64,000 nucleotides of DNA from Nemertoderma westbladi. Lineage: Eukaryota > Animalia > Xenacoelomorpha. Below, in pieces: positions 13,050 to 59,590 of this stretch; position 1 is the stretch's first letter, and each line of letters begins with the position of its first letter. The notes beneath the pieces were generated by a model. The model saw only the letters and a list, made by a program, of their open reading frames with translations. It searched no databases and was not told the DNA's origin. The position numbers and the translations under genes were made by a program. The DNA lies in assembly GCA_032718475.1 (NCBI GenBank), contig JAUCBJ010006599.1:1-64000 (forward strand), read 5' to 3'.

Positions 13050-14500
13050 TGGCTACCACATTGGTAGACCACTTGGTTACCGCAGTGCTACACCATTTGG
13101 TTACTGGATTGCTACACCACTTGGTTACCACAGTGCTACACCACGTGGTTACCGCTGTGGTACACCACTTAGTTACCACAGTGGTACACCACATGGTTAC
13201 CTACACCACTTGGTTACCGCAGTGGTACACCACATGGTTACCACAGTGGTACACCACTTGGTTACCACAGTGCTACACCACTTGGTTACCGCAGTGGTAC
13301 ACCACATGGTTACCACAGTGGTACACCACATGGTTACCACAGTGGTACACCACATGGTTACCACTGTGGTACACCACTTGGTTACCACAGTGCTACACCA
13401 CTTGGTTACCGCAGTGGTACACCACATGGTTACCACAGTGGTACACCACTTGGTTACCACAGTCCTACACCACTTGGTTACCGCAGTGGTAGACCACTTG
13501 GTTACCGCAGTGCTACACCATTTGGTTACTGCATTGCTACACCACTTGGTTACCACAGTGCTACACCACGTGGTTACCGCTGTGGTACACCACTTAGTTA
13601 CCACAGTGGTACACCACATGGTTACCTACACCACTTGGTTACCGCAGTGGTACACCACATGGTTACCACAGTGGTACACCACTTGGTTACCACAGTGCTA
13701 CACCACTTGGTTACCGCAGTGGTACACCACATGGTTACCACAGTGGTACACCACATGGTTACCACAGTGGTACACCACATGGTTACCACTGTGGTACACC
13801 ACTTGGTTACCACAGTGCTACACCACTTGGTTACCGCAGTGGTACACCACATGGTTACCACAGTGGTACACCACTTGGTTACCACAGTCCTACACCACTT
13901 GGTTACCGCAGTGGTACACCACATGGTTACCACAGTGCTACACCACGTGGTTACCGCTGTGGTACACCATTTAGTTACCGCAGTGGTACACCACATGGTT
14001 ACCTACACCACTTGGTTACCGCAGTGGTACACCACATGGTTACCACATTGGTAGACCACTTGGTTACCACAGTGGTACACCACATGGTTACCTACACCAC
14101 TTGGTTACCACAATGCTACACCACTTGGTTACCACAGTGCTACACCACTTGGTTACCGCAGTGGTACACCACATGGTTACCACAGTGCTACACCACTTGG
14201 TTACCGCAGTGGTACACCACATGGTTACCACATTGGTAGACCACTTGGTTACCGCAGAGCTACACCATTTGGTTACTGCATCGCTACACCACTTGGTTAC
14301 CACAGTGCTACACCACGTGGTTACCGCTGTGGTACACCACTTAGTTACCACAGTGGTACACCACATGGTTACCTACACCACTTGGTTACCACAGTGCTAC
14401 ACCACTTGGTTACCGCAGTGGTACACACACCACTTGGTCACCACATTGGTACACCGCTTGGGTACCATATTGGTACACCGCTTCCGCTTGGTTACCGCAG
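13049..14500. repeat. 24-bp minisatellite (ggttaccacagtggtacaccactt) with 425-bp higher-order unit
   Basis: 8-codon periodicity in all frames. 17-bp deleted units (ggttacctacaccactt) recur at ~13196 and ~13621, 425 bp apart. Confidence 0.95.
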
Positions 14501-14755
14501 CAGTGAAACATAATGTGAAGCTTATTGCGTTAGAAAAAGGAATGGTGCTATTAACGCCGTTTATTCATCATCATTTATTGTTTGATTAAAATGACATGGC
14601 ACTGTAATCTGCTGCTTTCCTTTGCTTACGGCGAATATACGGCCTAAAGGCGAAGAATAGCACCCAAAAATGGTGGGACGTCACAGTCAACGGTAGTGAA
14701 GTGCAGTTACGTGAAGGTCGTTCACACTTAATGGTTTATCAATAAACCAGCGGTT

Positions 14756-22328: not shown

Positions 22329-24485
22329 GTAACAGTTTATAATCTTATTGCAGTAGGCAATAAGGTTGCAAAATACCGTAGTGACTGGTAAAACTGAACC
22401 GGTGCTTCTGTAGGTCAGTAGGCCTAACTGTCATCACCGGTACCGGTACTGCTGTACAAGTACATTTAGTATTATTCGATTTTGATTATTGTATACCGGT
22501 AGGCTGTTTAAGAGATTAGGGACTGTACACCCCTTGTTTCTTTTGGAGCTTACTTATTTCTGTCGGTTTTATTTCCTAGTAAGTTAATATTGAGCTGAAG
22601 ACGTGTAAGTCTGCTCAGATTGTTCAAATAATTGTAGACTGAACTGCTGTCTGACTGTGTTGAGTTTGGAGAGATTACGGCGTGTGTAGAGTTTGTCTGA
22701 TAAAGTGCCGTTAGTAAGTTGGGGCAGCCATATGCGGTAAGGTCAATCCCCTCTTAAAGAATAAGTCGTACTACCGTGTTAGAACGCATACTAACTAACA
22801 GTTTCAGAATCTGCATATACTGTAGTTTATTTAGGCTTGATCGTAGTCTGCCAGTGTTTTAGCCTGTGTTTGTTTGTGTGGTCTGTTCAGGTACCGTAAT
22901 AGTTATTACTCCAATATTTTGTAGGCTGGATTGTTGTCTAGCTATTCTTAGGCCTGAAGGGATTGCTGCGTGTGTAGAGTTGGTCTGATAAAGTGCCGTT
23001 AGTAAGTTGGGGCAGCCATATGCGGTAAGGTCAATCCCCTCTTAAAGAATAAGTCGTACTACCGTGTTAGAACGCATACTAACTAACTGTTTCAGAATCT
23101 GCACATACTGTAGTTTGTTTAGGCTTGATAGTAGTCTGCCAGCGTTTTGGTTTGTATTTTGTTTGAGTATTCTGTACGGGTAGCGTAATATTTATTATTC
23201 AGAGTTTATGCAATTATTCGCAACATTCATGTCCCCAAGTTTATTCCTACAGTAATTGTGCTTGTTATACATACCGTTATAGTTAAACTAACCCCGGTAC
23301 TACATTAGGGCTGCTCGGCGTAGGTAAAGACTGGAGATTTTGTGCTTCGGTCACTCCAGCAGATGCCGTGGTTCTTTTAACTGTTCAAGTATATTTAACT
23401 ACTGATTATTTGTTATACCGGTACTTGTACCTAATTTAGGGTTTAGTGTACAGTGCTTTCCGAAGTAATTAGTGTAGGCAGTATATTTGTGTTGTAAAGT
23501 GGTTGATAGGCACATTCGTTAGCTCTATTAGCTTCTGGGTAGGAACAATCCGTGATACATAACGTAGTACCTATAGCGATACGGTTATAGGTCGTCAGGC
23601 GGTGGTATTTTCCTATCTGGACAGTACAATATATTTACTACTACTTATTATTTCAAATACCGTAGTACCCTGTCCGTTGTAATAACCAGAATTCTAACCC
23701 TTTGTTAGGCTGGTTTGTAGACTTCCTGTAAAATTACCCTAAAAATTTCGTACGTAATATTTTGTTGTGTTTAATTAGAGAATTAATCTCACCAGTATCG
23801 TAAGTAATTTGTAGTATTAAGTAACTTAGGTAAATTAGAATTATCAGTTTTAGTGTCAAATAAATAACACTTCACTGAGAGCGTTCAGCTTCTGTGTAGT
23901 GACTCCCCCAGAAATAATAACATTTATTTCAAATATTGACAAAAAACCCATTTAAACGGGTATATCAATATTATAAATCAAATCAAACGATTTATAAATA
24001 GTAGGCCTGCCATACAACAACTAGGTCTCACTATCAGTTGGACTACTGCTTAAATAACGGTAATAAAGTAAGTTAAAGTAACTAAGTAACCCTAAAATAT
24101 TCAGGAATTCAATTATTCTAAAAATAATTGACATACCGGTACTTACCATAGGCTTATTATATTTATTTCTATAAATTTGAGCTGAAATCATACCGGTACT
24201 CTGTAATTAATTCTAGTTCATAATTATACTTATATATACTATAAGTGTAAGCTGTATACCGGTATTCAAGATAGGCCTATTATATATTTATATATATCTG
24301 TGTTAAATTTATATACCGGTACTCTGTGACAAACCTAGTTTACAATACTTATATATATTATAAGTGCATACCGGTATTCTAATATACTGCAATAAATTAC
24401 CGGTACTAGGCCAGTGGTCATACTGAATTACTAGACTTGCTTTAACTGTAACTATAGCAGTAAGCCTTCAACTGTATAGCTAAAC

Positions 24486-27400
24486 ATGTCTGACACTCAG
24501 CAAAACCTGTCAGACAGTCTGATCGATACAACTATCTGTGATTCAGATAGGAGTGTGGAGCGAATAAGAAAGGAGTTCGGCTCACCTCCTACTGTAAAAA
24601 AGGTCATCCCTCCAGTAGTATCAGACCCTAGGCTAGTCCACCATAGGTCCATCATAGGCACTCGGGCACAGGTAAAACGGGACCAAGAGGCAGTTGTCCT
24701 ATCGCAGCAACATCTTGGTCAAGAACCTACTTCCCAGCGACCCGATAGCTCCAGCAGTTCGGATACTGTAGAGCTGACTCCCGAACATGGAGTGCAGATG
24801 GCTGATACAGTCTACTCGGACCCCCTTCTTACTCTTCCTGCTGCAGTGCTAACTACTATATTCATTGCGGTGGAGGAACATCAAGCCGACTGGGCGAAGA
24901 ATAAGCGAGCGACCCAAGATAATTACGCGGGATACGCCAGGGAAGAATTGATATCTATTGTTGAATCACAATGGAACTTTCCCGAACTCGGACTTCCGTT
25001 GGATCTGTCCGAGGCTACTTGGGAAGATATACACAGGATGGGAGTGGCTAAAGATACAATGGATCCAGCTGTTTGGAAGAGGTCGGCAGCAGGATATGTG
25101 CAGGGATTCTTCGGATCCTTGGATCGATTGGAAGAACAACTGTTTCGACAACCTCACGGACCCCAAGAGCAGGAAGAACTGCTATATCAAATACGCGAAA
25201 GAACCCTACGCATATGACTAATTCTCTCAGCCTTTGAGGAAACTTCCAAAAGAAGACAGGACACGTCGCTGCAGGTTGCTGTCAAAACTTGGTTACATCG
25301 GGTAGATCTCAAAGTACAGGAAACGGCCCAATGGAAATCCCAGCTGGCTGAGAGATCAACCTATGAAGAACCAACTGATGTCACCCTTTCTCAAGCGGAA
25401 AGCGAAGAGACCGCCGAGAAACCGCGAGCTAGAGACGCTATCGACATTTATTTGTCCGACTATCAGCGATTCCTAGGAGACGAAGAGTTGAGGAGACGGC
25501 TGTCTGGACTTTCCCCTAATAGTGAAGGAACCAAGCTTGTATTAGACTCAATCGATGCCGAAATGTTAGCTGCAAACCAAGCTGAATGTGATGAAAAACT
25601 CCGTCTCACTAGAGTCCGAGAAGAACAAATAAAGAGAAGAAGGATAGAGGAACAAAAGGCGGCGGCTATGGCAGATGCAGAAGCAGAAAGAAAAGCAGCA
25701 AAGGCGGCGGCTATGGCAGATGCAGAAGCAGAAAGAAAAGCAGCAAAGGCGGCGGCTATGGCAGATGCAGAAGCAGAAAGAAAGGCAGCGGCGGCAGATG
25801 CAGAAGCAGAAAGAAAAGCAGCAAAGGCAGTGGCAGAAGCAGAAAGGAGAGCATCTGAGCAGACTACCCAACTGGAGTTGGAAAATCTGCAAGAGACACA
25901 AGACAGTATAAATAAACAGTTTACTGCTAATCAAATGCAGATGATGAGAAAATCTACTCCCAAGCGCCAGGGATACACATCCTCGGAGGAAGGCGAGACC
26001 ACCGACCCTGAAGGCGGAGGAAATAGATCTCATCTAAGTAGGCGTAGAAAAACATCTTACCGTCGCAAATTGCCTGATTTGCCCCCAGCTGTTAAAAGAC
26101 AGCTAACTAGCACAGACTTAGGTAGTGCAGAACCCATAGAACAATTTATCCAGGTCAAAAGACTCCCTACTATAGTCGATGAACCTGAAATAATTAGGCC
26201 TGTTGTTCCCAAAGTCACTTCTGTGCTAGAGACCCCTGCACTTCCAGAGCTTAACTCTAAATTCCCTTTACATAGTACTACACTGCCTGTACCCGGTGGA
26301 ACAGTCCATGCAAATACCCCTGTCCAGATAGCAGAGAGAGAAATCAATAATTTGTCTCCCGTCGTCTCGCGTCAGCCCGCTACTATGTTGGCGACTCCCG
26401 CTTCGGCGGTTGAGTGGGTGGAAGAGGGACGGCGGGGGATGAATCTCCTGCTAGGACAGATGCAGGAGACTGTCCACCAACTTAAGGGAACAGTGAGGGA
26501 AGGTAGAGCAGAGTTGCAAGAAGTGCAGCAAAGTATCGCACTAGAACGCGATAAATTAGTCAATATCCAAAAGGGCATACCAATAACCCCTGTAACATTG
26601 TGTCAACCTGTTAGGTCTGAAGTATTACATGCGCAAGGTGTGGAGCCTACACGCATCTATACTGCTAGTGAAGTTGAAACTCCTATAACAAACCCTATTA
26701 AGGGTGATTATAGACCTGTTATTAATGATATTCCCTATAGACCTGATAATGATCCGAGAAATTTATATACCGATAATTCGATATTAAATAACACGATGGC
26801 CCAAGAAAGCTTTACGCGTCAGATGGCTAGAACAGAAGCCCGCCAAGCGGTCAAAGTGGGAGAGATCGTCAAATTCAATGGAGATGAGATGAAATGGTTA
26901 CCTTTCAACGAATATTACAAAGATAGCATACAGAATTCTGTACTATCTAACGGAGAGAAACTTAGATTCCTCATCAAATGTTTGGAAGGACCTCCCAAGT
27001 TAATGGCGTTAAAGTTTATTGGACATCCAGAAGGATTAAGACAAGTATGGGATACATTAAACATCAGGTATGGTAACAAGGATAACATAGCTAAGTATTT
27101 GTATGCAAAATTAGTAGCCCCCCGACACTTCCTTAGTAGCGAGATTATAGAGTTTTCCGATGAAATTCAAGAGATCTGTAGACAACTGGACTGGTTAGGT
27201 AAGTCGCATGAATATCAGAGTTCCATGGTTATTGGAGCCGTAGTCTCTACTTTACCAAAGGGTGGAGTATGTACACGCTGGGACAAGAAAGTGTTGTACA
27301 TGAATGAACAACAACGACGAAGTCCTACCATGGCTGATCTCATGTCTTTCTTAGATAGTGAAGTAAAATTACAACTCATAAGGCAGTCCAGAGAGAAAAC

Positions 27401-29135
27401 ATCGGAAAATAAGGTAAGTGAGAAACCCGTTTCTAGGAGAAGGATAATACCAGTGTGTTATACTGACGACGGCGAAAGCCAAGCTTCTCAAGAAGAGGAC
27501 AGCGGGAAAGACACAGCAAAATCTTTCTATGACAACAAGACCTATAAAGACGTAAGTAAATACAAGTCTCGAACCAGTGACAGGAGAGAACAGGTAACAA
27601 CAACTCCTCCTACGTCTCCTAAGAGAATTCACGGAAGAAAGCCCGAAGAAAGAACGAGAGTGCATAACGTTAACCAAGTTAAGGTGAGTAACATCAAACC
27701 AAAATGTGCGCTGTGCGACGGGCCCCACCGTTTGAGTGCGTGTGCTGAATTTCTAAAGAAATCCCCTGTCGACAGACGTACAGTCCTGTGGAATAAGCGG
27801 TTATGCTATAATTGCCTCAGATCAGGACACCAACGGCGAACCTGTTACTCCGACGTAAAGTGTGCAAAGTGTGGCGCGAAACATCACATCTTGTTACACA
27901 GTGAGTTCGAACGAGACAACCCGAGTCAGGTAAGTGAGCCCGAACTACATGTCCAATTCAGTGATGTGAACGACACTGACCAAGGTTCTGAGTGGGAAGG
28001 ATTCTATACAGACGAATTCTCCGATGCCAACGAATCCTGTTATCTAATAAATACCACAGTGTATCGAGCACTTACAGATGAAAAGGACACTGACGAGTTT
28101 ACTCCAACTCCTTTTGACAAACAACCATCTTGGAAAGTTCCAACTTCCAACATAGGAATAAGAGAATTTCCTGTAGTGCAAGTTCGAGTTCATGGTCTCA
28201 ACAAGAGTTACATAGTGAACGCCCTACTTGACTCCGGCAGCACAGGAACATTCATCGATCAAGAACTAGCCGAAGATATCTTTGCTGGACAACCCAAGTT
28301 CCGGACTAAATTGAATATGTCAGGAATTATGCAGGTTTGGAAATCTACCCTAACGGCAGATTACTATGTAGGTGAGTTGTCCACCCCCCAGGATAAATTA
28401 GGAGCACAAAGTATAAGGTCAGTAAAAATGGTGGCTATAAAGAACTTCGCTACTACCCAAGCAGACCTTTATAACTGGGACGACGACGAGTGCATCCAAC
28501 ATCTTGAGATACCTCGATTCCAAACCGATTATCCTGGAGTGCAAATCCTCATCGGCCAAAACGCGCATGAGGCGCTCGAGACATTGGAGAAACGGCCTGC
28601 TCAACCGCAGCCATTACAAACTTATGTGGTAAGAACTAGAGTAGGTTGGTACTTTACTGGCCCTTCCCGCAGAACTCTTGAAGAAAGATTGCCACAAGAC
28701 CGGCTACTTCAAGTAAAGGATTGGGAAGAGGGGAGCAGTGAAGTGGACGAACCCACTGAGGTAACACCATACTCCTCAGATAATGACGATATTAACTCCA
28801 ATGTAGATCAATGGAGACATCGCCCCGAGATGATTAATCTAGCCGACATCGCTTCCAGAGGAGCAACTCCTCAAGAACGGATAGATACTCCCGGCTGGTT
28901 AGGTGGACCCGACTCCCTAAGTAAAGAAGAAGATGAATGGCCTCCTCATCTTACCACTGCGGAGATTAGACAGGCCAAGGGAGCGGAGGAAGTAACACGA
29001 CAGCCTAATCGCCCAGCTGGTCGCTTAGGTTTACTGGAAAGAGACCGAAAACTGTCCGGAAACCATGGAAGGCAAGATACTCTTCCTACGACCACTTCCC
29101 TAATTCGACAAAGATCTAGGGACTCCATAACGTAA
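24486..29135 (+). CDS. BEL/Pao Gag-aspartic protease polyprotein with one in-frame TGA (25215-25217), fused to an RNase H C-terminal stub
   Basis: ORFs 24486-25217 and 25452-29135 share a frame, which is open from 25218. Contains a coiled-coil repeat, DUF1759-like KFNGDEMKW...LNIRYG, three zinc knuckles (CALCDGPHRLSAC, CYNCLRSGHQRRTC, CAKCGAKHHILLH), protease ALLDSGS / ILIG / TRVGW, then WRHRPEMINLADIASRG...WLGGP. Confidence 0.9.
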
Positions 29136-30760
29136 TTATATATGGAGTGGGCGTGTGACTATATCATTTTATATTTGTTTTTATTTTATATTTATGTATG
29201 TATTATTATGTAATTTTATTATAATCGTTTTCTTTAATTTTATTTAGTAGAATGTTATTTTAGTGATTATTTAGTAGATTAGTGCAATATATTAGTGTTT
29301 ATTACGTATGTAATTACTTATAATATATATTTAGTGCGACGGCGAGAAATAATTATTTTTCTCTTTCCTTACTGTCCGTATCATATTATAAATACGTGAC
29401 TATAGTAAGATGACATGTCAGTACTTATTAAAGTACAATAAAGCCACTACTATATTTAAGTATTATTGGTAGGCAGAGTATTAGGAATGCAAAGTTCAGA
29501 TCCTCGTGTCTCGGCTAAACCAAGCTCTGGGTAGACCTTGGAAACGACTTGCCTCTTCACACTGACATTGCTTCGTGCGATATTGCTCTTCTACCTTATA
29601 ACAAATAATACATATAGTAGCGTGATGTCCCTCTAACAGTAGCGTAAATCGCAAATAAATCTGTTAAACTTTTGACCATCTGTAATTCTAGTCGATTAAG
29701 ATATCGTGGCACCCACCGATATACTTGAAAGACAAATTCTAGAATCAGTGGTTAACGTCCCCAGACAAGTTCTGGAATAAATCGGTGCCCATCCTAAATA
29801 TTAATTTAATATTTATTAAAATCTGTAAAATTCAGATCCGTTAACAATTCTAGTCGATTAAGATATCGTAGCACTTACCGATACTCTTAAAAGACAAATT
29901 TCATAGAATTAAGGATCTTGTGTCCCCAGACCTGCTCTGGAATCAAATTGTGTCAATTTTAACATCAAATAATAAAATTCACGGGAATAAATTTAAATTC
30001 ATATTCGAATGAATTTCATAAATTGTCATTTTGTGCAATTTATAACATTCCCAAAATTCCAGTAATTAATAGATCATGGGAGCGGAGATTCATATTGAGT
30101 GTACTAGAGCGCGAGAATCTCCAACATATAGTCAATAGCCGATAAAATTTATAAAATCATGCATAAAGAGGATATTGACAATTAAAGAATTACTATTAAA
30201 TAACATCCCAGATCTGTATGCATGAGAATTGCCCTAATTCTACCGCTAGTTTTCCATAATGTCACCATGGCAACACCCACGCTAGAATTAGAAGCAAGTT
30301 AAAAGGAACAATAAAAAGCTTACCCCATTGCGTAGCATAAGAGTATACATAACGCACTATTAGTATCCAAGGATACATAGTAATAAAGTGACATTCTGGA
30401 AGACACTGACTAACGGACAAATGGCATGCATGTGTGCAGTAAGTAATGATTGTATGGAATTTGTGCGTTTATAGGTGAATGTTACTACTAAAGTGTGTTT
30501 ACAGTAGCTAATCGCAATTGTAAAATAGCCCTAACTCTACCGAGATAACCTCAAGTGGATTCAAGCCTTTGGGACGGACAGTGGTGGGACTTGTGCCGGT
30601 TATCGTTGTCGTGCTGTTGCTACATGTTGGCGTAAACACTGCGACAGCGGTACATCGGCGCTGAGAAACCCACTGTCCGGGGGCAAAGCCTAGTAGGCAG
30701 CGACGCCCGCTTGCCTAAAATATTAACTCATATTGATATTAATAAACTCAGATAGCAGAT

Positions 30761-32210
30761 ATGACGGAATTGATAGAAGATGACCTTGGTATTAGAGAGC
30801 GATATACTCTACCTTTACAAGCGTTTGTGGATAGCTTGATACGCGGTGAAGCCGATCCGACTATTACGGAGGACGATGGTCGTTATATCGAACCGCCGAT
30901 GTCCCAGGAACAACTTACGCGTGAATTGGACTATAGAAAATTCACCACTCGCTATACGAATCGTAATGGTACGTATATGGACTTCTTAACTACCAGCCAT
31001 CCTATCGATTTACATGATACGGACGATGTATACACCGAAAGGGAAATGGTTCTATTTAAATATCATACCCAGCGGAGTCGTAACGATAAACCGAGAATAG
31101 ATCACGAAAATTATATTCGTAACAGACTGGGAAGACGAACCCATATGTTTAGAATCTGAAGAGATTCAGCCCCCCACGTCTCGGAGTAGCGATAGCGACT
31201 ACATATTGGAATGGTATCAAGGTCCCCAGTGTCTTACGGCGTATGATTATCGCCATGCCAATTATGTTTCTAGACAACGTTGTCGGCTGTGCGCATCGAG
31301 AGACCATATTACGTCTATGGACACCAACGATCTTTGTTCCTATTTCCACGAGCAACCGTCGATGGAAATCTATTGTGCATATTGTCGGCTTAATAATTTG
31401 CACATTTTTGCTGTCTGCCCCCAATTTATGACTCAATGCCATCATTGTCAATTAAAAGGACACGCCAGCTTTGATTGTCCCTTTAACCATGATTTAGAGA
31501 GCGTAGATGAAATGATTGTACTACGTTATATCAGAGCTTGGGAAGCGAACGCTGATTTACATTGTGATTCACGCCATCGCTATTATCCTGGACGCGCTTA
31601 CGAAGGAGTTTATGCGTTCCATCCTTATTTGTTTGCCTCCGTCGAGCAGAAATCGCGCCTATCAAGTTATGAACTATTGAAGCGCGTTGGAGAATGTATT
31701 TCAACCAAATATGTACGCAAATTCCTCAGGAGCATTAATCCGAGTGACATCAATTCGTATAACTTAATAAACTATATCCGTCAAGATCCGGCCTATGGAG
31801 ACTTATTTGTCAACTCACACCCTGAGTTACAGGAAGTATATCGACGGCCTTAAGAGTACAGAGCCCGCGAACGCGAGTTGGAAAGAACCATTAAACCAAG
31901 GAAGTTTCTAACTGCCTATGGTCCACCCACGGCCCTCGTTCAGACCACTCGTAAAGGACCCGTAAGAGCGGCTGTCTTGAAACGAGCTCTCAAAGCCGTT
32001 AGACCCCTCTCCCCGGACGTTGATGTCAATCAACCCGGTACTTCGACCGGCGGATATACCGATCGCAATCCCATACCTTCTGATGCAATCCTATTGCACC
32101 CTTCACCCAGGAGTTATAGCCCTCCTCGTAAAGTGGCTCGCCCCAAAGAGAAAAGGACTCTTGCTAGCTTTAAAAAACTGCGTAAACGCCGTCCGCGCAA
32201 GAAAGACTAA
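30761..32210 (+). pseudogene. Extra 3' ORF of the LTR element (~480 aa when joined): triple CCHC zinc knuckle with basic C-terminus, broken by one frameshift and one stop
   Basis: 30761-31159 overlaps a second frame open from ~31101. 31206-31853 and 31878-32210 are in frame across a TAA. Motifs CRLCASRDH..C, CAYCRLNNLHIFAVC, CHHCQLKGHASFDC; ends KKLRKRRPRKKD. Confidence 0.7.
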
Positions 32211-33477: not shown

Positions 33478-34516
33478 TCCTATTGATCCATTTTTAAAAT
33501 ATAATATTCTTAGCAAAACATGAAATAGTCCTCATATTGAATATAGACTTAATTAAACTAAACATAGTTTTTTTTTCACAATTGTAGTAAACTTGGACAG
33601 TTATAATTGTTTTCTGCCATTGAATGATGGCTGGGGCCTGGTGGTTTTCTACTAGGCCTACAGTATACTACCACGGCCCCATATTAATTATTATCGCAAA
33701 ATACCAGCCACATTATACACTGTTAAAAAAATGTAAATTTCGAACTAAGTTCGTTATAGTGAAATTGTTTTCACAACTTTTTTAAGGTGATACAACGCAA
33801 AATTATTGTATTAAAATGTAAATGTTAATCTCACAGAAAAGCTAGTGTCATTTACCACAATTTTGTTAAAGTATAATATATAGTATAATAAATATATTTT
33901 CACCTGAAAAATTTTACTGTAAAATGTAAACTACATAATTTATATTTTAACAAGAAAACATTTAAGCAAACCTCAGCAACTATATGATGATTGAAACTAA
34001 CATTTTTGGTGCATTTTTATGGGGCGCCGTTTGGGCCAAAAATAAAAAAAACATATTATATTAAAAAGTTATAATGGTATGTTTTTTTATCTTGCCGTTT
34101 GGGCCAAAAGTTGTAATGGTATGTTTTTTTATCTTGCCGTTTGGGCCAAATATAGCTGAGAGGGAAATTTGAATTATCAATTTCTATATACTGTATTTAG
34201 CAATTCAATTATCATCATACAGTCATACCTGTGAGCCTGTCTGCCTACATGATTGTGGATTGTATTTACACACGGTACCGTATCGCTGTAGGAGTGGACT
34301 TTAGGCTTACCTCCGCTGTATGGCTGTATGGGCCTTGGCCTACCGGTACTCATATACTGTCACTGGGTAATGCTGTAATGTAGCGTTAGGCTGTTAGGTA
34401 CAAATCGGTATACTTTAGGCCCTGTAGCGTTACACGTACACCTTGTGCTTGTGTTAGACATACATCTTGTGGTCCACAATCTTGCAATACTGACTGACTG
34501 AGGCATTAATGTCAGA

Positions 34517-35722
34517 ATGTCGGCACACGGGCGGCCCCGAACTTCAGTTAGTGACGATCAGCTTCGCTATTTAAGAACTGTACAAAGGTTTACAACTAAG
34601 AATATTTCCAATATTATGAACGTATCGGAAAGGACGATCAAACGACGATGTTCCAGTTTAGGTTTTACCAATCAACGATTCACCCAAATATCGGATGACA
34701 GACTGGATCAACACATTAGCGAAATTCTTTCAGATACACCCAATATAGGAGAAGTTTATTTGGCTGGAGCATTGCGTTCTATCGGAATAAATGTACAGCG
34801 ATGGAAGCTCAGGGAACGAATGGATATTTTAGATCCAATAGGTCGAGCTTTTCGAAAAAGTAAAGCAGTTAAACGGCGGGTTTATTTTGTGAAAGGTGCC
34901 AATCACCTATGGCACGTGGACTCAAACCACAAACTTATAAACTGGCGTTTCGTTATCCACGGAATTGTCGATGGTTACAGCAGAATGGTAGTCGGATTTC
35001 TCTTCTGTGACAACAATCGGTCGGAAACAGCGCTAAAGAATTTTAAAGACGCTGTTTCAAAATACGGGCTACCGCTTCGAGTGCGAGGTGATTTAGGTGT
35101 AGAGAATTTTGAAATCGCGCGTTTTATGTTAGATTCTCGGGGACTTGGTAGAGGAAGCTACATTGGTGGTAGAAGCGTACATAACACTAGGATCGAACGC
35201 CTGTGGGGTGAAGTGAATCGAGTTGTTAGCAATACCTATAAAGCAGTTTTCATCCGCCTGGAAGAAGATGGAGAACTCGATCGAAACAACGAGATACATA
35301 TATTCATATTGCACTACATTTATACTCCACGTATCAGGAAATCCCTTGATCGCTTACTTGGGGAGCTAAATAACCGCAGTGTGAGTACAGGGGGCATGAA
35401 GACACCTAACCAGATGTGGTGTGAAAGTGTATTATTGGATGCAGGTCTAGAATTCAGGAATACGAACTGTGCAGAGGGAAGCGCTGCTGCTGGTGGAGGT
35501 CTAGAGGATGAAACTGTGCAAGAGATAATTTCATACACTGGAGAAGAAGAAGTTGAAATAGAACCGAGTGGGTTATCTGAAATAGTAGTCCCTGAATTAA
35601 CTTACGAGCCTCAGATGGTATTGGTCCAACTGCTACAAGAAATTAACCCATTGGCCGAAGACAATAACTTTGGAATGGAGTTATATAAGCGGGCAATAAG
35701 TATTGTTGTTAATCACTCTTAA
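34517..35722 (+). CDS. DDE transposase (IS3/IS481-like integrase core with N-terminal HTH), 401 aa
   Basis: [18 protein letters not shown]; catalytic [39 protein letters not shown] uninterrupted. Confidence 0.92.
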
Positions 35723-35840
35723 TCATTTCTCAGTGGGGGGTATAATAATATATATGAAAGAAATATGGCTTCACTTATTATCTCGTGCTGTGCGAATAAT
35801 ATTATTCATTAATAATATATATTAATATTATTCATTAATA

Positions 35841-36100
35841 AGCAGCAGCTTGGTCTAGTGGTGACATTACTGGGCTTCCAATTAGGGAGCCCTGGTTCGA
35901 TCCCTAGATGGGGCAGCACTGTTTGGGCACAGTGCTTTAAATGCTGCAGCCTAGCCCAACCCCGGCTTTCATCCTTCAGTGGTCGATAAATGGGAACCAA
36001 GGCAACTTGGGAAACAGAGTGGAAGGGTTTACTGTGGAAGATCACCCATGGTGGTGAACAGGCATTCCTTGGCTTAACGAGCCTAAAAGATTCTCCCAAT
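35841..36100 (+). mobile_element. tRNA-derived SINE inserted between the transposon ORFs
   Basis: A box tggtctagtgg, B box ggttcgatccc, Gly(TCC)-like loop cttccaa, central gctttcatccttcagtggtcgataaatgggaacca, AT-rich flanks. Confidence 0.75.
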
Positions 36101-36593
36101 ATCCATTAATATTAAATATAATTTAAATCTCCGAGCTTTACTCTGCAGATAGGGGGGGAACTGGACGCAATAAAAATTCATCCCTATCCAGGGGAAATTG
36201 GTCGCAAATAACAGATGATTACTCTCAAAAATAAAACTGTGTTCTATTATGTTTAGTTTATTGTTTTGGTTAAAATATCGTGCCACTGTAACCTGCTCCT
36301 TTCCCTAAATTGAGAATTTAACATTGAGGCGGGATATTAAGTCGCCAAGGCGGGTTTTGCGTCGAGTTCCCCCCCCCCCCCCCCCCCCCCTTTGTCTCTT
36401 ACTCTGTATGTATATATAGGGAAAAATAACAGAAAAAACAATAATTTTTTAATAATCAAAGAATTATCAATCAATTCAATAGAATTATAAAATTAGTTAT
36501 CCCAAATTCAAAGAATTATCAATAAACACTACCGGTAGTTAAAATAACCAATAGTTATGACCCGACTAATAATTATTAAATCCGTTGATATTC

Positions 36594-38651
36594 TCAAATC
36601 AGAGTAAATTCTGGAGACATTAGAATGTCGTCAGTAACCAATTGGAAGAATTTATTGGAATTCGCTGCTAGATACCGAGTATTGAGAGGGAAGTGAATAG
36701 TTTGTGAGCAGGTATCCGCATAGAGCCTCTTAAAACCATCCTGTGGAAGAGATTCATCTTTCTCGAATTCGAGATTACCTTCGAAGTTTGGAAATCTACT
36801 GCCACTTCCAAATTGTAATATATCCGCAAGAAATAAGTATTTCCTGTTGGTGTCTTCAAAATCCGTCTTTAGGTAGTCGGAATCACATGATGGTATATGA
36901 GGTTGATTATTTCCAATTTTAACGAGAAAACGTTGAAATTTGAAGGCCATTTGAGTTTCTCTTTCATGTTCAACAGTCCCTGGGTGTGATTTATACACAG
37001 GCTTAAAACAGTTCTTTACATCTTCTGCAGAAATAACTCTTTGTGTTAATAACGCCTTGGCATCTTCGGGATGCTGCTTTAACACATCAAACACACCAAA
37101 CAATTTCAACCCTTCCCTGAAATTATATATTTCTTCGGCAGTCGAACTAACTAATATATGTTTATAAACAAGCTGCAGAAAACTATGCTTTTCTTGAATA
37201 TCAAAATCAGCGGTTGCTATTCCCATATCAAACCGTTCCTCAAATAGGCCTAAGTTAGCCTTAAAATCTTGCTGAGTAATGGAATTCACAATTGCTTTAA
37301 TTTTACTGAGTCGTTCATCATCTGCAGGAAGTTCTTCAAAATTGGAAGTATGGGGGATTTCCAGTACAGCAGCAGCTAGTGTCGGAGACAAACAATGTGG
37401 ACCTGGTAAATTATTAATAATCGCTAAAGCTACCATGTTGCCAAAATACAAGAACCTATTGAGATTTACTAAATTATGCCTGAAAAGAAGGTTTGGGTAA
37501 GTTCCCCTAAACAGAGATCCTGATTGCTTGGTGAAAAACAAGCTAAACAGCTCTCTTGTTAAACCACCAGTATCTGTGCCACCTTCACCTAGAAACTTGA
37601 CAATAACATTAGGTGAATCGATGTCTTCATCTTCCAGTGTTTCATAAACACTCGTAACAACAGAGCTGCGTGGAACTTCAAATCGTGTAACTTGGTTTAG
37701 AGAATACTTATTAGTCAAACTCGTCATTTTCGCGACAATCCCATCAGCAACTGGGCATTCAATGTGAAATTCCTCACCCTCTTCTGGCTCTTCTTCTACC
37801 AATATCAACGGGTCCATGTCACCTTCGCTCGTCACAAAATCACCATACCTCTCGGGTGGCCTGGTTTCACGTCTGGGCCTACTTGATAGATGCTGGTCGG
37901 TATTCAATTCGTTACTGGTATTACTACAAGACGATTCATAGTACTGAACACGAGTAGATGCCAGTTCAGCTCTTGTCATCTCCTGCTCCGATGCGCATGT
38001 CAACTCATTAGATGGTTTATTACGATCGAAAGTACAACTCAACTCAAACTCTGCATCTTGTTGACAAATTAAGCATTTACTATCAACAAGTTCCTCTAAA
38101 CTTGTAGTTCTTCCACATATGCAAAATGTAGATGTAGATTCATAGGTGGTTTCGGTAATATCAGGGTTAATATCCGAACTACAGGGTTCGGGTACTGGTA
38201 CATTTTCCATGATAAGAGGGATAGTTTCAGTGGGTTTATTCGTAATTGCAATATATAGCGTACGATTGTACTTCTTGAAAACGTTAAAAACGCCCTCACC
38301 ATCTAGAACCGAACCAGGCCCCAGAGTGGATATTGCGTTGAACAATTTTGAATAGCATGCAAGTAGAATAGTACATTGGGATGAGCACAAAGGAACGAAG
38401 GGTACGCTATTGGTAACGGTATGGTCTCTACAGTTCAATTTTTCGTTAAATTTGGAACGGTTGTAGAGTTTATAGTTCAATTCCTGGAAGTCTGGTTGGT
38501 GTTGGCCAGGCAGCCAGGACAGCAGGAGGATGAATCTGTCGTCTATATTGCACTGTACCCGTCGAAATGCAGAGCAATACCCCGAGCTAGGCATAGTACA
38601 CAGTCTGACAGTAACGCTGAACTCAATGCTGCTACAATCTGACAATATCAA
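36594..38651 (-). CDS. HECT-domain E3 ubiquitin ligase-like protein (G2E3-like C-terminus), up to 685 aa; true start uncertain
   Basis: N-lobe VKFLGEGGTDTGGLTRELFSLFF, YFGNMVALAI, FREGLKLFGV, ILQFGSG, catalytic LYADTCSQTIHFP, terminal EFTLI* with the -4 Phe. Upstream CICG...CLIC Cys cluster. Confidence 0.87.
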   Translation of the reverse strand: MILSDCSSIEFSVTVRLCTMPSSGYCSAFRRVQCNIDDRFILLLSWLPGQHQPDFQELNYKLYNRSKFNEKLNCRDHTVTNSVPFVPLCSSQCTILLACYSKLFNAISTLGPGSVLDGEGVFNVFKKYNRTLYIAITNKPTETIPLIMENVPVPEPCSSDINPDITETTYESTSTFCICGRTTSLEELVDSKCLICQQDAEFELSCTFDRNKPSNELTCASEQEMTRAELASTRVQYYESSCSNTSNELNTDQHLSSRPRRETRPPERYGDFVTSEGDMDPLILVEEEPEEGEEFHIECPVADGIVAKMTSLTNKYSLNQVTRFEVPRSSVVTSVYETLEDEDIDSPNVIVKFLGEGGTDTGGLTRELFSLFFTKQSGSLFRGTYPNLLFRHNLVNLNRFLYFGNMVALAIINNLPGPHCLSPTLAAAVLEIPHTSNFEELPADDERLSKIKAIVNSITQQDFKANLGLFEERFDMGIATADFDIQEKHSFLQLVYKHILVSSTAEEIYNFREGLKLFGVFDVLKQHPEDAKALLTQRVISAEDVKNCFKPVYKSHPGTVEHERETQMAFKFQRFLVKIGNNQPHIPSCDSDYLKTDFEDTNRKYLFLADILQFGSGSRFPNFEGNLEFEKDESLPQDGFKRLYADTCSQTIHFPLNTRYLAANSNKFFQLVTDDILMSPEFTLI

Positions 38652-40514
38652 GAATGAATAACTCTGTCGAACCCAGCGCCAGCAGATGGAGGATGAGTAG
38701 GCCTATCGGTATCAGATCTCTCGCCTTTCCGCATGTTTTCGTGCCAGATGCGCATATGGCTGGATGGGGTACCGTTTAACGTACATACGTCAGTACGTAT
38801 TTCTGTATGCTTGTATGTAGTTCCAGTTACCAGTATCAGAGTATATATGAGTGATAGCCTACTGACTGACTGACATCTAAAGCAACAAAGAGTCTAGTCA
38901 CATCACAAGTCCTGAAGTCCATAAGTCAGGCAGTCAGGTGCAGCTGTCAGGAGCTATGAATAGGACATACCGGTAGCGGTAATTCCTTCAGTTCTGCAGT
39001 TAGTCAGTACTGCAGTAAGGGCGGAGGGAGAGGGAGCCTAAAGGCGAAAGGCCTCCATTGTCCATTCTGCCAGTTCAAATTTCCCTCTCCGCTATTTTTG
39101 GCCCAAACGGCAAGATAAAAAACATACCATTACAACTTTTGGCCCAAACGGCAAGATAAAAAAACATACCATTATAACTTTTGGCCCAAACGGCAAGATA
39201 AAAAAACATACCATTACAACTTTTTAATATAATATGTTTTTTTTATTTTTGGCCCAAACGGCGCCCCATACATTTTACCCTATCTAAGTTGTGGAGAAAA
39301 CGATTTGCAATTCTTGTTAAAATAAAAACATATGTTTATGTTGCTATGGAAATAATCTCACTGCGGCACTCCATTGGATAGTTCTCAAGTTTGTACTGTA
39401 ATATTATATGATGACAGAAGGTCAATTATTATTCTAGTAGTGTACAGTACGTTATTGTTCTGATGTTATGTTACCCCTCGATTGTTAGGCCTATACTTTA
39501 GTGACAAATATCACGTTAGAATGGACACCACTCGAAGAGCATCTGAAAAACTTAACAGATGTCTTTCGGACTTGTACTAGGCCGCCTACAAAGATTCGCC
39601 AAAAGCTAACTCACGATCAGGATAGTTGTTTTTTTTAGCGGTTAAGGTAGAAAGTGAAGATTACACTAGAGTAGATTAATATTGCATTTTATTACAGTAG
39701 TGATGTTAAATAATTGGTGTATGGTAAATTACATTGCAATATATTAGTTTGGTATTAACACTTGACATATGTGCGGACCCTTGGTCCTCTCTTAGTGTAC
39801 TAGTCCTTCTAGACTAAATGGAAAATGGAATTTTAATAATTTATGATTCGAATTTTAATGTAACTATTGTAATTCTGTAGGAGCAACATCACACTCAACT
39901 TCAAGATCAGTCTATCAGTGAACCGGGGCGTCGACTGGCGCTCAGCTTGGTGAACAGGAATCTGTTATGTGATGACAGGATCAGGACCGAGGAATCATCA
40001 AGGAAATAGCAAACCACAATATCAGTCGGTGGTTGTATTTCGGTCGCAATTTTTTTATTGCTGTTGCGGCATAATTTTACATTATTGCTGTTGCAGCTGT
40101 CTGTAATTCGAGCTTATCACTTATTTCTATCACCGTTTTAATTATGGTTAAGGTCGCCACTACTGTAAACAACCACATAAAATGAGTTGTAATTCGGTGG
40201 CATTTGGGTGGGCATATGAACGATAACTTCGAGTTAAAAAGTATGTACAATCTTTCATATTTGTAAATTACCGGTATTGTTACTTGCTTTTTTTAACTTT
40301 ATTATACTATCGTACTGTTTGTCAATGAAGACATACAAAGAGGAATCAAAAATACTTGATCTTCTTCAAGTGCTCTGTGCTTCGAGTTAAAATCTGTTGT
40401 GCTTTGATTATACAATCTTTCATATTTGTTAATAAATTATTGTGACTTGTTTTTATAACTTTATGTTACTACCGTACTGTCAGACTAGTTGTCTCTCATC
40501 ACCGTTTTTCAAAA

Positions 40515-41335: not shown

Positions 41336-41828
41336 TGCTCTAGGCTCTAAAGCCGGGGAGGGGAACCGCCAGCAGCCAGTGCAGCAGTGCATAGGCCTAC
41401 TACAGTCGTAACCCCTGAATGTGCGCCTCCTACATCAGTACAGCTAGCACTGTAGCAGTACATAGCTACCATCAATTTGTCACTACATGCAATAGGCCTA
41501 CTGCAATAGGCAGGCAGACTGGCAGATCACTATCTGACTATGGCAGATACTGAGATAGTCCTAGCAATTTACTATACCGGTCAGCCGGTACCTTCAGGGA
41601 GTCAGGCCTGCAGACTGACCGGCAGACCGGTACACGGTAATACTGAATACTGTAATACAGTACCGGTACCTAATACTGTAATACTGTCTGACTGTAATAT
41701 ACTGATATACAGATATAGGCCTAGTTCAGATAACTGAATAATAACCTGCAGACCTGACAGCCTGATACCGGCAGACCGGTAGCTGGATAGGCCTACTGGT
41801 AACTGACTCTATATGCTATAATCTGATA

Positions 41829-43382
41829 ATGGATGATGATAACATTAAACAGGGCCGAGATTCCCCGTTATTTGGGGACGACGACAACCCGAGTAGCGAG
41901 GGGGAGCTATTCGACGACGCGCCGGAGCCAAAAACAACTCCGCGTGCCGACGACCCCGGTGCCGCAAGCGTCTTCCTGGACGCGAAATCTTCGCCGATAG
42001 CGGCCCCCCGACACGATGGCGACGCCGCCACGTTCCCGGCGGAGATCTCCCTGGAGGACGACTCGGAGCCAACTAGTCCGTCGCATCCGGAACCCGCCCC
42101 TACGGCTCCGGTCAGCAGCATCTTCGAGGATTCCAACGAGATGCCGCCAAAACCGGCGGCGCGATTCGTGTCGATAACGACGGACCTCCACAACGGACAC
42201 GCCCCCAGCGATCCCGACGGCCGCTACATCGAGATTTCCGTGACGGACCCGCATAAAGTCGGGGACGGAATGATGTCCTCCTTTATGTCGTACAAAGTAA
42301 CAACGCGGACCAACTACCCCGGGTTCGGAAGTGACACCGAGTTCTCGGTGGAGCGAAGATTCTCCGACTTCCTCGGGTTATACCACCGACTCCTCGCGAA
42401 ACATCTCGACCTCGGACGAATCGTGCCTCCGGCGCCGGAGAAATCCGTCGTCGGAATGACGAAAGTGAAGATGTCCAAGTCGGATGCGCCGACAGAGAAC
42501 GAATCCTCGTGGGAGTTTATCGAACGTCGACGGATGGCCTTGGAGCGATACCTAAACCGAACCGCGATGCATCCCGTACTCCGTGGCGATGCCGAGTTTA
42601 TCGAGTTCCTCCAACGCGAACTCCTTCCAAAGTCGTCCAACTCCGCCGTCTCTGGGAGCAACTTGAAGAAGATGTTGACGAAAGCGGTGAGCGTCGCCGA
42701 GTCGATGATCGGGTCTACGAGCGAGGAGGACGACTGGTTTACCAACTCGCTGCGACACGCCGACCTGATGGAAGGGCAACTCCGCCGGCTGCTCCTCGGG
42801 GTGGAGCAGCTGGTGGAGTCCCGACGGGAGGTCGGCAAGTACTCGGGGCATCTCGCGCGTTCTGTCGCGCTGCTCAGCAACTGCGAAGAGAACGCGACAC
42901 TGCGACGCGCGCTCTCGGTGCTCGCGGACACGCAGGACGCGATCGAGCGCGTCCAAGCGGACCAATCGAACGCGGACTTCTATCTCCTCGCCGAGTTGGT
43001 TAAGGATTACATCGGGTTGATCGGCTCCCTCCGCGAGGTATTCCGTCAGCGGGATAAGTTGTTCGGGAGTTGGAACTCCGCGGAGGCGACGTTGGTGAAG
43101 AAACGCGAGAGCGAGTGTAAGTTACAGATGGCGGGGAAGCAAGATCGCGTGGCCGACGCTCAACGGGAGATCGGCGAGTGGGAAGACAAGGTGAACCGAG
43201 CCCAGGTCGCCTTCGATCTCATCTCCAAGAACATTAAGGAGGAAGTCGCGCGATTCGAAGAATTCAAATCAAAAGATTTTTCTGTTACTATAATTAAGTA
43301 TCTGGAATCTCTCGCCGAGAGTCAGGAACAATTAGTGAAGTCCTGGGAAGATTTCCTACCCGAAGCCAAAGCCATACAATAG
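41829..43382 (+). CDS. SNX1/SNX2: Sorting nexin 1/2 (PX-BAR, retromer-associated), 517 aa, single exon
   Basis: ISVTDPHKVGDGMMSSFMSYKVTT, VERRFSDFLGL, GRIVPPAPEKSVVGMTKVKMSK, FIERRRMALERYLNR, BAR helices, and C-terminal WEDFLPEAKAI. Confidence 0.96.
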   Translation: MDDDNIKQGRDSPLFGDDDNPSSEGELFDDAPEPKTTPRADDPGAASVFLDAKSSPIAAPRHDGDAATFPAEISLEDDSEPTSPSHPEPAPTAPVSSIFEDSNEMPPKPAARFVSITTDLHNGHAPSDPDGRYIEISVTDPHKVGDGMMSSFMSYKVTTRTNYPGFGSDTEFSVERRFSDFLGLYHRLLAKHLDLGRIVPPAPEKSVVGMTKVKMSKSDAPTENESSWEFIERRRMALERYLNRTAMHPVLRGDAEFIEFLQRELLPKSSNSAVSGSNLKKMLTKAVSVAESMIGSTSEEDDWFTNSLRHADLMEGQLRRLLLGVEQLVESRREVGKYSGHLARSVALLSNCEENATLRRALSVLADTQDAIERVQADQSNADFYLLAELVKDYIGLIGSLREVFRQRDKLFGSWNSAEATLVKKRESECKLQMAGKQDRVADAQREIGEWEDKVNRAQVAFDLISKNIKEEVARFEEFKSKDFSVTIIKYLESLAESQEQLVKSWEDFLPEAKAIQ

Positions 43383-56249: not shown

Positions 56250-59200
56250 TGATTGTATCCTCCGTTGTGGCAACTATAGCATCTGTTGGGGCGATTGTTT
56301 CCACCATTGTGGCAACTATATCATCTGTCGTGGCGATTGTTTCCTCCGTTGTGGCAACTATTATATCTTTTGGGACGATTGTTTCCTCCGTTGTGGCAAC
56401 TATCATCTGTTGTCGCCATTGTTTCCTCCGTTGTGGCAACTATAGCATCTCTTGTGGCGATTGTATCCTCCGTTATGGCAACTATAGCATCTGTTGGGGC
56501 GATTATTTCCTTCGTTATGGCAACTATAGCATCTGTTGTGGCGATTGTTTCCTCCGTTGTGGCAATTATAGCATCTGTTGGGGCGATTCTTTCCTCCGTT
56601 GTGGCAACTATAATATCTGTTGGGGCGTTTCTATCCCCCGTTATGGCAACTATAGCATCTGTTGTCGCCATTGTTTCCTCCGTTGTGGCAACTATAGCAT
56701 CTGTTGTGGCGATTGTTTCACCCGTTGTGGCAACTATAGCATCTGTTGGGGCGATTGTTTCCTCCGTTGTGGCAACTATAATATCTGTTGTGGCGATTGT
56801 TTCCTCCGTTGTGGCAACTATAATATCTGTTGAGGCGATTGTTTCCTCCGTTGTGGCAACTATAATATCTGTTGTGGCGATTGTTTCCCCCGTTATGGCA
56901 ACTATAGCATCTGTCGTGGCGATTGTTTCCTCCGTTGTGGCAACTACAGCATCTTTTGGGGCGATTATTTCCTTCGTTATGGCAACTATAGCATCTGTTG
57001 GGGCGTTTGTATCCCCCGTTATGGCAACTATAGCATCTGTTGTCACCATTGTTTCCTCCGTTGTGGCAATTATAGCATCTGTTGTGGCGATTGAATCCTC
57101 CGTTGTGGCAACTATAGCATCTGTTGGGGCGTTTGTATCCCCCGTTATGCTATAGCATCTGTTGTCGCCATTGCTTCCTCCGTTATGGCAACTATAGCAT
57201 CTGTTGTGGCGATTGAATCCTCCGTTGTGGCAACTTATAGCATCTGTTGGGGCGTTTGTATCCCCCGTTACGGCAACTATAGCATCTGTTGTCGCCATTG
57301 TTTCCTCCGTTGTGGCAACTATAGCATCTGTTGCGGCGATTGTTTCCCCCGTTGTGGCAACTATAGCATCTGTCGTGGCGATTGTTTCCTCCGTTGTGGC
57401 AACTACAGCATCTGTCGTGGCGATTGTTTCCTCCGTTGTGGCAACTATAGCATCTGTTGGGGCGATTGTTTCCTCCGTTGTGGCAACTACAGCATCTGTT
57501 GGGGCGATTGTTTCCCCCGTTGTGGCAACTATAGCATCTGTCGTGGCGATTGTTTCCTCCGTTGTGGCGACTATAGCATCTGTTGGGGCGATTGTTTCCT
57601 CCGTTGTGGCAACTATAGCATCTGTTGTGGCGATTGAATCCTCCGTTGTGGCAACTTATAGCATCTGTTGGGGCGTTTGTATCCCCCGTTATGGCAACTA
57701 TAGCATCTGTTGTCGCCAATGTTTCCTCCGTTATGGCAACTATAGCATCTGTTGTGGCGATTGAATCCTCCGTTGTGGCAACTTATAGCATCTGTTGGGG
57801 CGTTTGTATCCCCCGTTATGGCAACTATAGCATCTGTTGTCGCCATTGTTTCCTCCGTTGTGGCAACTATAGCATCTGTTGTGGCGATTGTATCCTCCGT
57901 TGTGGCAACTATAGCATCTGTTGTGGCGATTGTTTCACCCGTTGTGGCAACTATAGCATCTGTTGTGGCGATTGAATCCTCCGTTGTGGCAACTATAGCA
58001 TCTGTTGTGGCGATTGAATCATCCGTTGTGGCAACTATAGCATCTGTTGTGGCGATTGTATCCTCCGTTGTGGCAACTATAGCATCTGTTGTGGCGATTG
58101 TTTCACCCGTTGTGGCAACTATAGCATCTGTTGTGGCGATTGAATCCTCCGTTGTGGCAACTATAGCATCTGTTGTGGCGATTGAATCCCCCGTTGTGGC
58201 AACTATAGCATCTGTTGGGGCGTTTGTATCCCCCGTTATGGCAACTATAGCATCTGTTGTCGCCATTGTTTCCTCCGTTGTGGCAACTATAGCATCTGTT
58301 GTGGCGATTGAATCATCCGTTGTGGCAACTATATCATCTGTTGGGGCGTTTGTATCCCCCGCTATGGCAACTATATAGCATCTGTTGTCGCCATTGTTTC
58401 CTCCGTTGTGGCAACTATAGCATCTGTTGTGGCGATTGAATCCTCCGTTGTGGCAACTATATCATCTGTTGGGGCGTTTGTATCCCCCGTTATGGCAACT
58501 ATAGCATCTGTTGTCGCCATTGTTTCCTCCGTTGTGGCAACTATAGCATCTGTTTTGGCGATTGTATCCTCCGTTGTGGCAACTATAGCATCTGTTGTGG
58601 CGATTGTTTCACCCGTTGTGGCAACTACAGCATCTGTTGGGGCGATTGTTTCCTCCGTTGTGGCAACTATAGCATCTGTTGTGACGATTGAATCCTCCGT
58701 TGTGGCAACTATAGCATCTGTTGGGGCGTTTGTATCCCCCGTTATGGCAACTATAGCATCTGTTGCCGCCATTGTTTCCTCCGTTGTGGCAACTATAGCA
58801 TCTGTTGTGGCGATTGAATCCTCCGTTGTGGCAACTATAGCATCTGTTGGGGCGTTTGTATCCCCCGTTATGGCAACTATAGCATCTGTTTTCGCCATTG
58901 TTTCCTCCGTTGTGGCAACTATATAGCATCTGTTGTGGCGATTGTTTCCTCCGTTGTGGCAACTATAGCATCTGTTGTGGCGATTGAATCCTCCGTTGTG
59001 GCAACTATAGCATCTGTTGGGGCGTTTTGTATCCCCCGTTATGGCAACTATAGCATCTGTTGTCGCCATTGTTTCCTCCGTTGTGGCAACTATAGCATCT
59101 GTTGTGGCGATTGTATCCTCCGTTGTGGCAACTATAGCATCCGTTGTGGCGATTGTATCCTCCGTTGTGGCAACTATATCATCTGTTGTGGCGATTGTTA

Positions 59201-59590
59201 CCCAGTTGTGGCAACCATAACATCTGTTGTGGCGATTGTTTCCCCCGTTGTGGCAACTATAGCATCTGTTGTTGTGATTGTTTCTTCCGTTGGGGCAACT
59301 ATATCATCTGGTGTGGCGATTGCTTCCTCAGTTGTGGCAACTATACGGTAGCACCTGTTTGTGTCTGTTGATCATAATGTTTGGTTGTCGCGATTGTTCC
59401 ATCCAATATGGCAAGTATAAACCCGATTGTGTCTATTATTTCCTCCATTATCATAATATGGCAAGTATAAAAAACCATATTATGACGATTGTTTCCTCCA
59501 TTTGCGGAAACTATAACCTCCGTTGCGGCGATTGTTTCCTATATATATGCATATTGGCAAGTATAACCTCCGTTGTGGCGATTTTATCAT
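56250..59590. repeat. 39-bp minisatellite (attgtttcctccgttgtggcaactatagcatctgttgtggcg variants), ~80 units, degenerate after 59345
   Basis: 13-codon periodicity, several recurring variant monomers, and sporadic indels. Confidence 0.96.

Follow-up and report, generated by a model that had tools for sequence, protein, structure and literature searches.

IS3EU and GingerRoot transposons have TA..TA ends, a 6-bp target site duplication (TSD), and an integrase-like DDE core (available text of PMC10045372), and the structure and function of IS3EU elements are regarded as largely unexplored (PMC11934779, in its available text). In rust fungi and Tuber, IS3EU elements are bounded by TAYGG..CCRTA ends and a 6-bp TSD and carry accessory enzymes of the TET/JBP and alpha-kinase types, with the alpha-kinase gene opposite in orientation to the transposase gene (accessible portion of PMC12730594). 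The element analyzed here, which lies in a 64-kb stretch of DNA that was analyzed whole (the window), is similar to both groups in its ends and TSD, to the former in its DDE core, and to the latter in having a second enzyme gene opposite to the transposase, but the enzyme in question is a HECT protein. HECT ligases accept ubiquitin from an E2 enzyme onto a cysteine and then pass it to a substrate (PMC6457168, in the part available). As far as the available versions extend, neither HECT nor ubiquitin is mentioned in the main texts of PMC10045372 and PMC6839031, the word HECT does not occur in the supplement of PMC10045372, and HECT is absent from the text and supplement of PMC12730594. A search of the open full-text literature listed no paper describing a HECT gene in an IS3EU element or in any other DNA transposon.

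Positions 34018-39270 of the window form a DNA transposon of 5253 bp that is of the IS3EU type and contains two convergent open reading frames (ORFs) (Table 1). The original prediction of near-perfect terminal inverted repeats (TIRs) and an exact 6-bp TSD was borne out: the arms at 34018-34150 and 39138-39270 are inverted, 133 nt long, and 98% complementary and start with TATGGGGCGCC, and CATTTT is present on both sides of the element. The TATGG..CCATA termini, which begin and end with TA, conform to the TAY..RTA ends with TIRs that define IS3EU/GingerRoot elements, and CATTTT has the 6-bp TSD length of that group. Contigs of four public DNA runs (X1 to X4, which represent no more than three samples and carry the same organism code) were compared with the window. 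One X1 contig joined position 34011 straight to 39271 and thus represents the empty site with one CATTTT, and an X3 contig spanned the left flank into the left end of the element (33500-34045) and represents the filled junction. Because both states were seen, the element is not a chance arrangement, and we conclude that it inserted recently and that the insertion is polymorphic. The element had a contig depth a few-fold to about tenfold above that of the flanks, a ratio that is not a copy number, and no second copy was found within the 64-kb window.

Table 1. Positions of the element, its borders, its coding frames, and its nested repeats in the window
Feature	Position	Strand	Remarks
Left TSD, CATTTT	34012..34017	+	One CATTTT at the empty site (run X1)
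Left terminal inverted repeat (TATGGGGCGCC...)	34018..34173	+	133-nt arm; two 42-bp subterminal units
ORF1, IS3EU/GingerRoot-type DD34E transposase	34502..35722	+	406 aa; 401 aa from Met at 34517
SINE-like repeat, very high copy, nested	35842..36105	+	tRNA-type A/B-box-like motifs by eye
Second nested high-copy repeat	36160..36340		Related pieces at 14574-14620 and 59929-60164
ORF2	36594..38702	-	702 aa stop to stop; first Met at 38591
HECT domain	36597..37703	-	369 aa; codons of the catalytic Cys and the -4 Phe at 36708-36710 and 36606-36608, respectively
7-bp junction (direct repeat)	38445..38451		Other copies have 572 extra letters here
Right terminal inverted repeat (ending ...GGCGCCCCATA)	39074..39270	-	Three 42-bp units
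Right TSD, CATTTT	39271..39276	+	Exact duplicate of the left TSD

The surroundings of the element are animal-like and include satellites, a Pao-type retroelement, and a sorting nexin gene. The last is an intron-free frame of 538 aa (41766-43382, plus strand) resembling sorting nexin 1/2, with PX and Vps5 BAR domains, an E value of 1.7e-104 to SNX1, and a GC content that rises to 61% against 35 to 40% in the window; it is possibly a retrogene. A BEL/Pao-type remnant at 24480-31853 contains DUF1759, protease, and zinc knuckle sequences and has a 1305-aa frame. Tandem repeats comprise a 103-bp satellite (1-9640; at least 94 copies, 97% identity), 61 copies of a 24-bp unit (8 codons) at 13049-14483 with open frames of 150 to 310 aa in all three plus-strand frames, and 74 copies of a 42-bp unit (14 codons) at 56251-59345. 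The last of these has long open frames on either strand, and its frame on the minus strand matches PF21300 (ice-binding beta roll), probably by composition.

ORF1 had been read as an IS3-like DDE transposase, and the analysis places it more precisely within the IS3EU type. The protein matched PF24764 (rva_4) with an E value of 8e-66, and its D135, D192, E227 triad (DD34E) is intact, at positions conserved in 121/121, 118/121, and 121/121 aligned proteins, respectively. A by-eye count over an ungapped stretch of the core gave 58 of 107 residues identical to Repbase IS3EU-1_SK (PMC10045372 supplement). There was no match in ORF1 to the integrase zinc domain (an upstream HHCC), and weak helix-turn-helix (HTH) matches were found at the N terminus; a DDE core like that of Repbase IS3EU, lacking HHCC, is what characterizes IS3EU/GingerRoot transposases, and the by-eye comparison finds it in ORF1. 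Among the best 120 of 496 homologues, those that were named came from corals, molluscs, beetles, fish, and a frog, and identity to ORF1 was mostly 37 to 53%. Most homologues are extended at the N terminus by a helical region of about 110 aa that ORF1 does not have, and no trace of such an extension was found anywhere in the element. Relatives of ORF1 or ORF2 were not found in viral contigs. A prokaryotic IS3 insertion sequence was ruled out, as the ends are TA..TA rather than TG..CA and the named homologues are animal.

Only two stop-free frames longer than 100 aa are present inside the element, one of 406 aa on the plus strand and one of 702 aa on the minus strand, and the next longest is 98 aa. 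Two long ORFs reading inward had been proposed and two convergent frames were indeed found, but the further description of them as uninterrupted fits a short variant only, because other copies carry a net 579 bp more, equivalent to 193 codons, in the 5′ part of ORF2 at 38445-38451. The long form was found alone in X1 (contig 5) and as its two loose ends in X2, and both forms were found in X3 and X4, as loose ends of the long form together with a bridged short form. The two 30-letter loose ends are stop-free in the ORF2 frame when translated by eye and are not mutual inverted repeats. The difference is likely due to a microhomology deletion in the window's copy, and ORF2 of that copy may be defective. 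Precise intron loss was rejected as an explanation, as by eye no GT..AG fits the 7-bp repeat. The HECT domain is unaffected by the difference. Between the ORFs, a SINE-like repeat and a second high-copy repeat had been overlooked in the first reading. The SINE-like repeat is also found in other copies of the element, has a contig depth of about 10^4 to 10^5 versus about 10^2 for the element, and is entered from 35587 by an X3 contig; it gave no Rfam or tRNA match of note.

ORF2 consists of an N-terminal half of low similarity, containing a weak Cys-rich/UIM-like stretch, followed by a C-terminal HECT domain. The residues on which the original prediction had relied (GExGxDxGG..RE.F, the catalytic Cys in ADTC, and the -4 Phe) are all present, the first as GEGGTDTGG..RELF, and ORF2 thus has the catalytic Cys and C-terminal Phe of HECT ligases. 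By itself, ORF2 scored 20.3 bits (E value of 5e-4) against the Pfam HECT model PF00632 and missed the gathering cut-off of 23.9, a cut-off passed by 23 of 30 selected ORF2 homologues. The best PDB matches of the single sequence were to Rsp5 (E values of 0.4 to 1), and a word-indexed search with the whole of ORF2 gave no match. When the C-terminal 369 aa were searched exhaustively, 350 representatives were retrieved, and a profile was built from 96 sequences, namely, the window's sequence and 95 of 150 listed matches that were picked mainly for length. The profile matched 72 solved sequences, of which the 60 listed were all HECT ligases (best E value of about 1e-25), and aligned the Cys with the TC motif of AREL1 and Rsp5. 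Searching for longer relatives with the HECT alignment returned large cellular HECT ligases only. A model predicted from the alignment reached a pLDDT of 92 and a pTM of 0.89, compared with a pLDDT of 33 for a single-sequence fold, and had the N-lobe/C-lobe architecture of HECT domains at the C terminus. The top Foldseek matches listed for the model were all HECT domains, with HUWE1 the best (E value of 8.9e-15), and identity of the model to solved HECT domains was 13 to 17%. Profile, model, and structural search therefore agree on the HECT fold, the absence of which would have spoken against the original prediction.

Conservation at the active site extends to the homologues. The catalytic Cys was kept in 76 of the 80 homologue rows with a residue at that position (96 rows, 16 of them gapped), Phe or Tyr occupied the -4 position in 76/80 rows on the same basis, and Cys was present in 20 of 22 ungapped C-lobes from transposase-linked genes (24 rows). 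The modules upstream of the HECT domain varied among 30 selected homologues and included RING, CUE, SAM, and zinc ribbon domains. The N-terminal half of ORF2 had no match in the Atlas, and a ubiquitin-like resemblance seen by eye in that half was not significant (E value of 5.9); the Cys-rich/UIM-like stretch matched Hydractinia homologues with an E value of 0.0016 (30-sequence set). A predicted transposase-HECT complex, run without alignments, received a score of 0.00, which counts neither for nor against an interaction. To judge by the residues it retains, the HECT protein is likely an active ubiquitin ligase in this lineage.

The pairing of the two genes was surveyed outward from the transposase in 99 loci, comprising the best 80 of 587 metagenome loci and 19 genome-bin loci, which collapsed at 80% identity into 64 families whose related loci are not independent. 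A HECT match lay within 6 kb of the transposase in 22/64 families and was convergent with it in 17 of those 22, and reversed-sequence decoys gave no HECT matches. The bias toward convergence had a p of 4e-7 against four equally likely arrangements, a calculation made on families that are related. Many of the contigs were too short to show or exclude a HECT neighbor; among families with at least 2 kb of downstream sequence, a convergent HECT gene was found in 12/25, and in 10/13 when the transposase was intact. Most of the sibling families with an intact transposase, though not all, thus keep the pair; the other three intact families show no HECT: L006/L008-L011, in which nothing was recognizable over 10 kb; L047; and L018, in which an AAA ATPase frame (2665-3741, minus strand) is convergent with the intact transposase on a contig that stops short of the element ends. 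No Pfam match was found for 44 short ORFs around selected loci.

Several sibling elements could be delimited. Two are complete TATGG..CCATA elements with both genes inside, L066 (9369-16812, 7444 bp, TSD of GATAGA) and L086 (9232-16538, 7307 bp, TSD of CTACAC), the latter nested in a larger inverted-repeat element with 620-nt arms (L086:7645-18017). Inverted ends surround both genes on a 5.4-kb contig (L003), and the five copies of the L024 family have a common TATGG left end and different flanks. An internally deleted IS3EU element without HECT was also observed (L097:9195-10854, 1660 bp, TATGG ends, TSD of TATGCG). At L080:1563-11155, a HECT fragment, a TET/JBP dioxygenase, and a transposase occur in a row on one strand, an arrangement that links the TET-containing and HECT-containing IS3EU types. 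Gaps bounded by GT..AG-type ends interrupt several of the sibling HECT genes, which indicates eukaryotic DNA even for contigs assigned to prokaryotic bins; L081 to L099 are elements on contigs in bacterial or archaeal genome bins, some with intron-like gaps, and a prokaryotic origin of the genome-bin loci was rejected on the basis of those gaps in HECT genes. We conclude that the pairing is old and that the IS3EU transposase lineage has conserved the HECT gene as a partner and does not carry it as a chance passenger. The locus is almost certainly an IS3EU element with such a partner.

Neutral evolution of the HECT gene, which would have counted against the original prediction, was not seen between families. 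In 11/11 diverged HECT pairs, pN (0.18 to 0.42) was below a saturated pS (0.69 to 0.97), with similar values for the transposase; these ratios come from locally aligned, conserved segments of related loci that are not independent. The other 4 of the 15 pairs compared consisted of near-identical copies, and dN/dS was 0.14 in one of them. As judged from this substitution pattern, the HECT gene is under purifying selection between families. Listed within-species variants were nonsynonymous at 7 of 8 sites in ORF2 and 2 of 5 in ORF1, a small number of sites among the variants listed; the pattern is that of unselected single copies and lends no support to current function. Gene trees were built with FastTree for 21 families from partial HECT rows and the corresponding transposases. 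The proposed co-phylogeny was recovered at shallow depth, with three clades recurring in both trees (Mantel rho of 0.24, p of 0.017), but deep branches disagreed, including the position of the window's own element. Mean identity between families was 27% for HECT and 45% for the transposase. The tree comparison fits long co-inheritance with possible swaps and falls short of proving co-evolution.

Since related elements share the gene pair, the elements likely use host protein tagging to spread. In the mechanism that we propose, the element's HECT protein would be expressed and take ubiquitin from a host E2 onto its catalytic Cys, would work in trans on substrates chosen by its variable N-terminal modules, and would tag host proteins that keep the element silent or in check. 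One way in which the HECT gene could be present and serve no such role is as a passive captured passenger, the Pack-type cargo of GingerRoot elements, which are reported to capture gene fragments (PMC6839031, available text). The neutral look of the within-species variants is consistent with capture, but the GingerRoot captures are fragments 79 to 98% identical to host genes and are mostly accompanied by transposase loss (same source and extent), whereas whole HECT domains of about 27% mean identity and saturated synonymous sites lie here beside intact transposases, in one preferred orientation. A passive passenger is therefore very improbable and, at the level of the lineage, largely refuted. 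The protein might instead be a pseudo-ligase or decoy that binds E2-ubiquitin or ubiquitin chains without productive transfer, as an identity of just 13 to 17% to solved HECT domains and an ORF2 sequence that falls below the Pfam cut-off when taken singly could suggest. A decoy would not need the Cys, the -4 Phe, and GExGxDxGG..RE.F all together, yet these are kept family-wide, and we consider it improbable.

If the ligase is active, its main substrate could also be the transposase that the element itself encodes, or the post-insertion complex, such that ubiquitination would limit the transposase level or direct the complex to the proteasome or p97 to be taken apart. In favor of such a substrate, the two genes are tightly co-inherited and their trees share shallow clades, ubiquitin-binding modules (CUE, UIM-like) suit chain building, and the convergent AAA ATPase in L018, whose membership in the element is putative, could be a parallel solution to remodeling. 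The N-terminal modules vary far more than the transposase does, however, the pair persists in the window's family although its transposase is without the N-terminal extension, and some intact families manage without HECT; regulation of the transposase is thus possible but unlikely. We favor a host restriction or chromatin protein, including one that acts in silencing, as the substrate, because the HECT domain diverges faster than the transposase (27% versus 45% mean identity), the targeting modules are interchangeable (RING, CUE, SAM, zinc ribbon), and other enzymes that modify the host are encoded by the IS3EU elements of fungi (PMC12730594, available portion). Taken overall, we give a host substrate roughly even chances.

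The suggestion that many animal "G2E3-like" annotations are transposon cargo agrees with part of the data, in that NCBI names of this kind were attached to 4 of the 10 distant ORF2 homologue clusters looked up, a correspondence of name only. ORF2 itself was rejected as a G2E3 orthologue, in which PHD/RING precedes HECT (table of PMC6457168, as available), as the short form of ORF2 had no PHD/RING match; RING is present in some ORF2 homologues. G2E3 is reported to have arisen after the chordate/echinoderm split (PMC2837046, available text). It is conceivable, but doubtful, that animal IS3EU elements are a large undescribed reservoir of mobile counter-silencing HECT ligases, that most "G2E3-like" genes of corals, molluscs, echinoderms, and fish are transposon genes, and that the HECT domain of vertebrate G2E3 was domesticated from one of them. 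If so, HECT and "G2E3-like" gene counts in many animal genomes would be inflated by transposon copies, and G2E3 would have a testable origin. A ligase kept by the lineage over deep time would moreover form a new class of transposon accessory enzyme, beside TET dioxygenases, kinases, and SUMO proteases, and would open a direct way to study how elements oppose or exploit the ubiquitin system of the host. The window's family is convenient for testing these ideas, because the family is compact and recently mobile and its HECT domain is free of introns.

Compared with the cellular HECT E3 ligases HUWE1, NEDD4/Rsp5, E6AP, and AREL1, the ORF2 protein has the common two-lobed fold in the same C-terminal position, and its catalytic Cys and C-terminal Phe align with theirs. 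It differs in being only 13 to 17% identical to them, in having no match to the domains found at the N terminus of the solved ligases, and in belonging to a multicopy, transposon-borne family, one cluster of which holds seven near-identical Hydractinia loci. Accessory genes are found in several DNA transposons, such as the Myb/SANT protein of Harbinger, the Ulp1 SUMO proteases of Zisupton and Mutator, and the VANC anti-silencing proteins of VANDAL. In each of these, as here, a second selected gene travels with the transposase, but the transposases belong to other superfamilies and the enzymes are different, and to our knowledge there is no ubiquitin ligase among them. We conclude that the element belongs to a transposon type, IS3EU, that is already known and little studied and that, as far as the open literature searched extends, the HECT partner is what is new.
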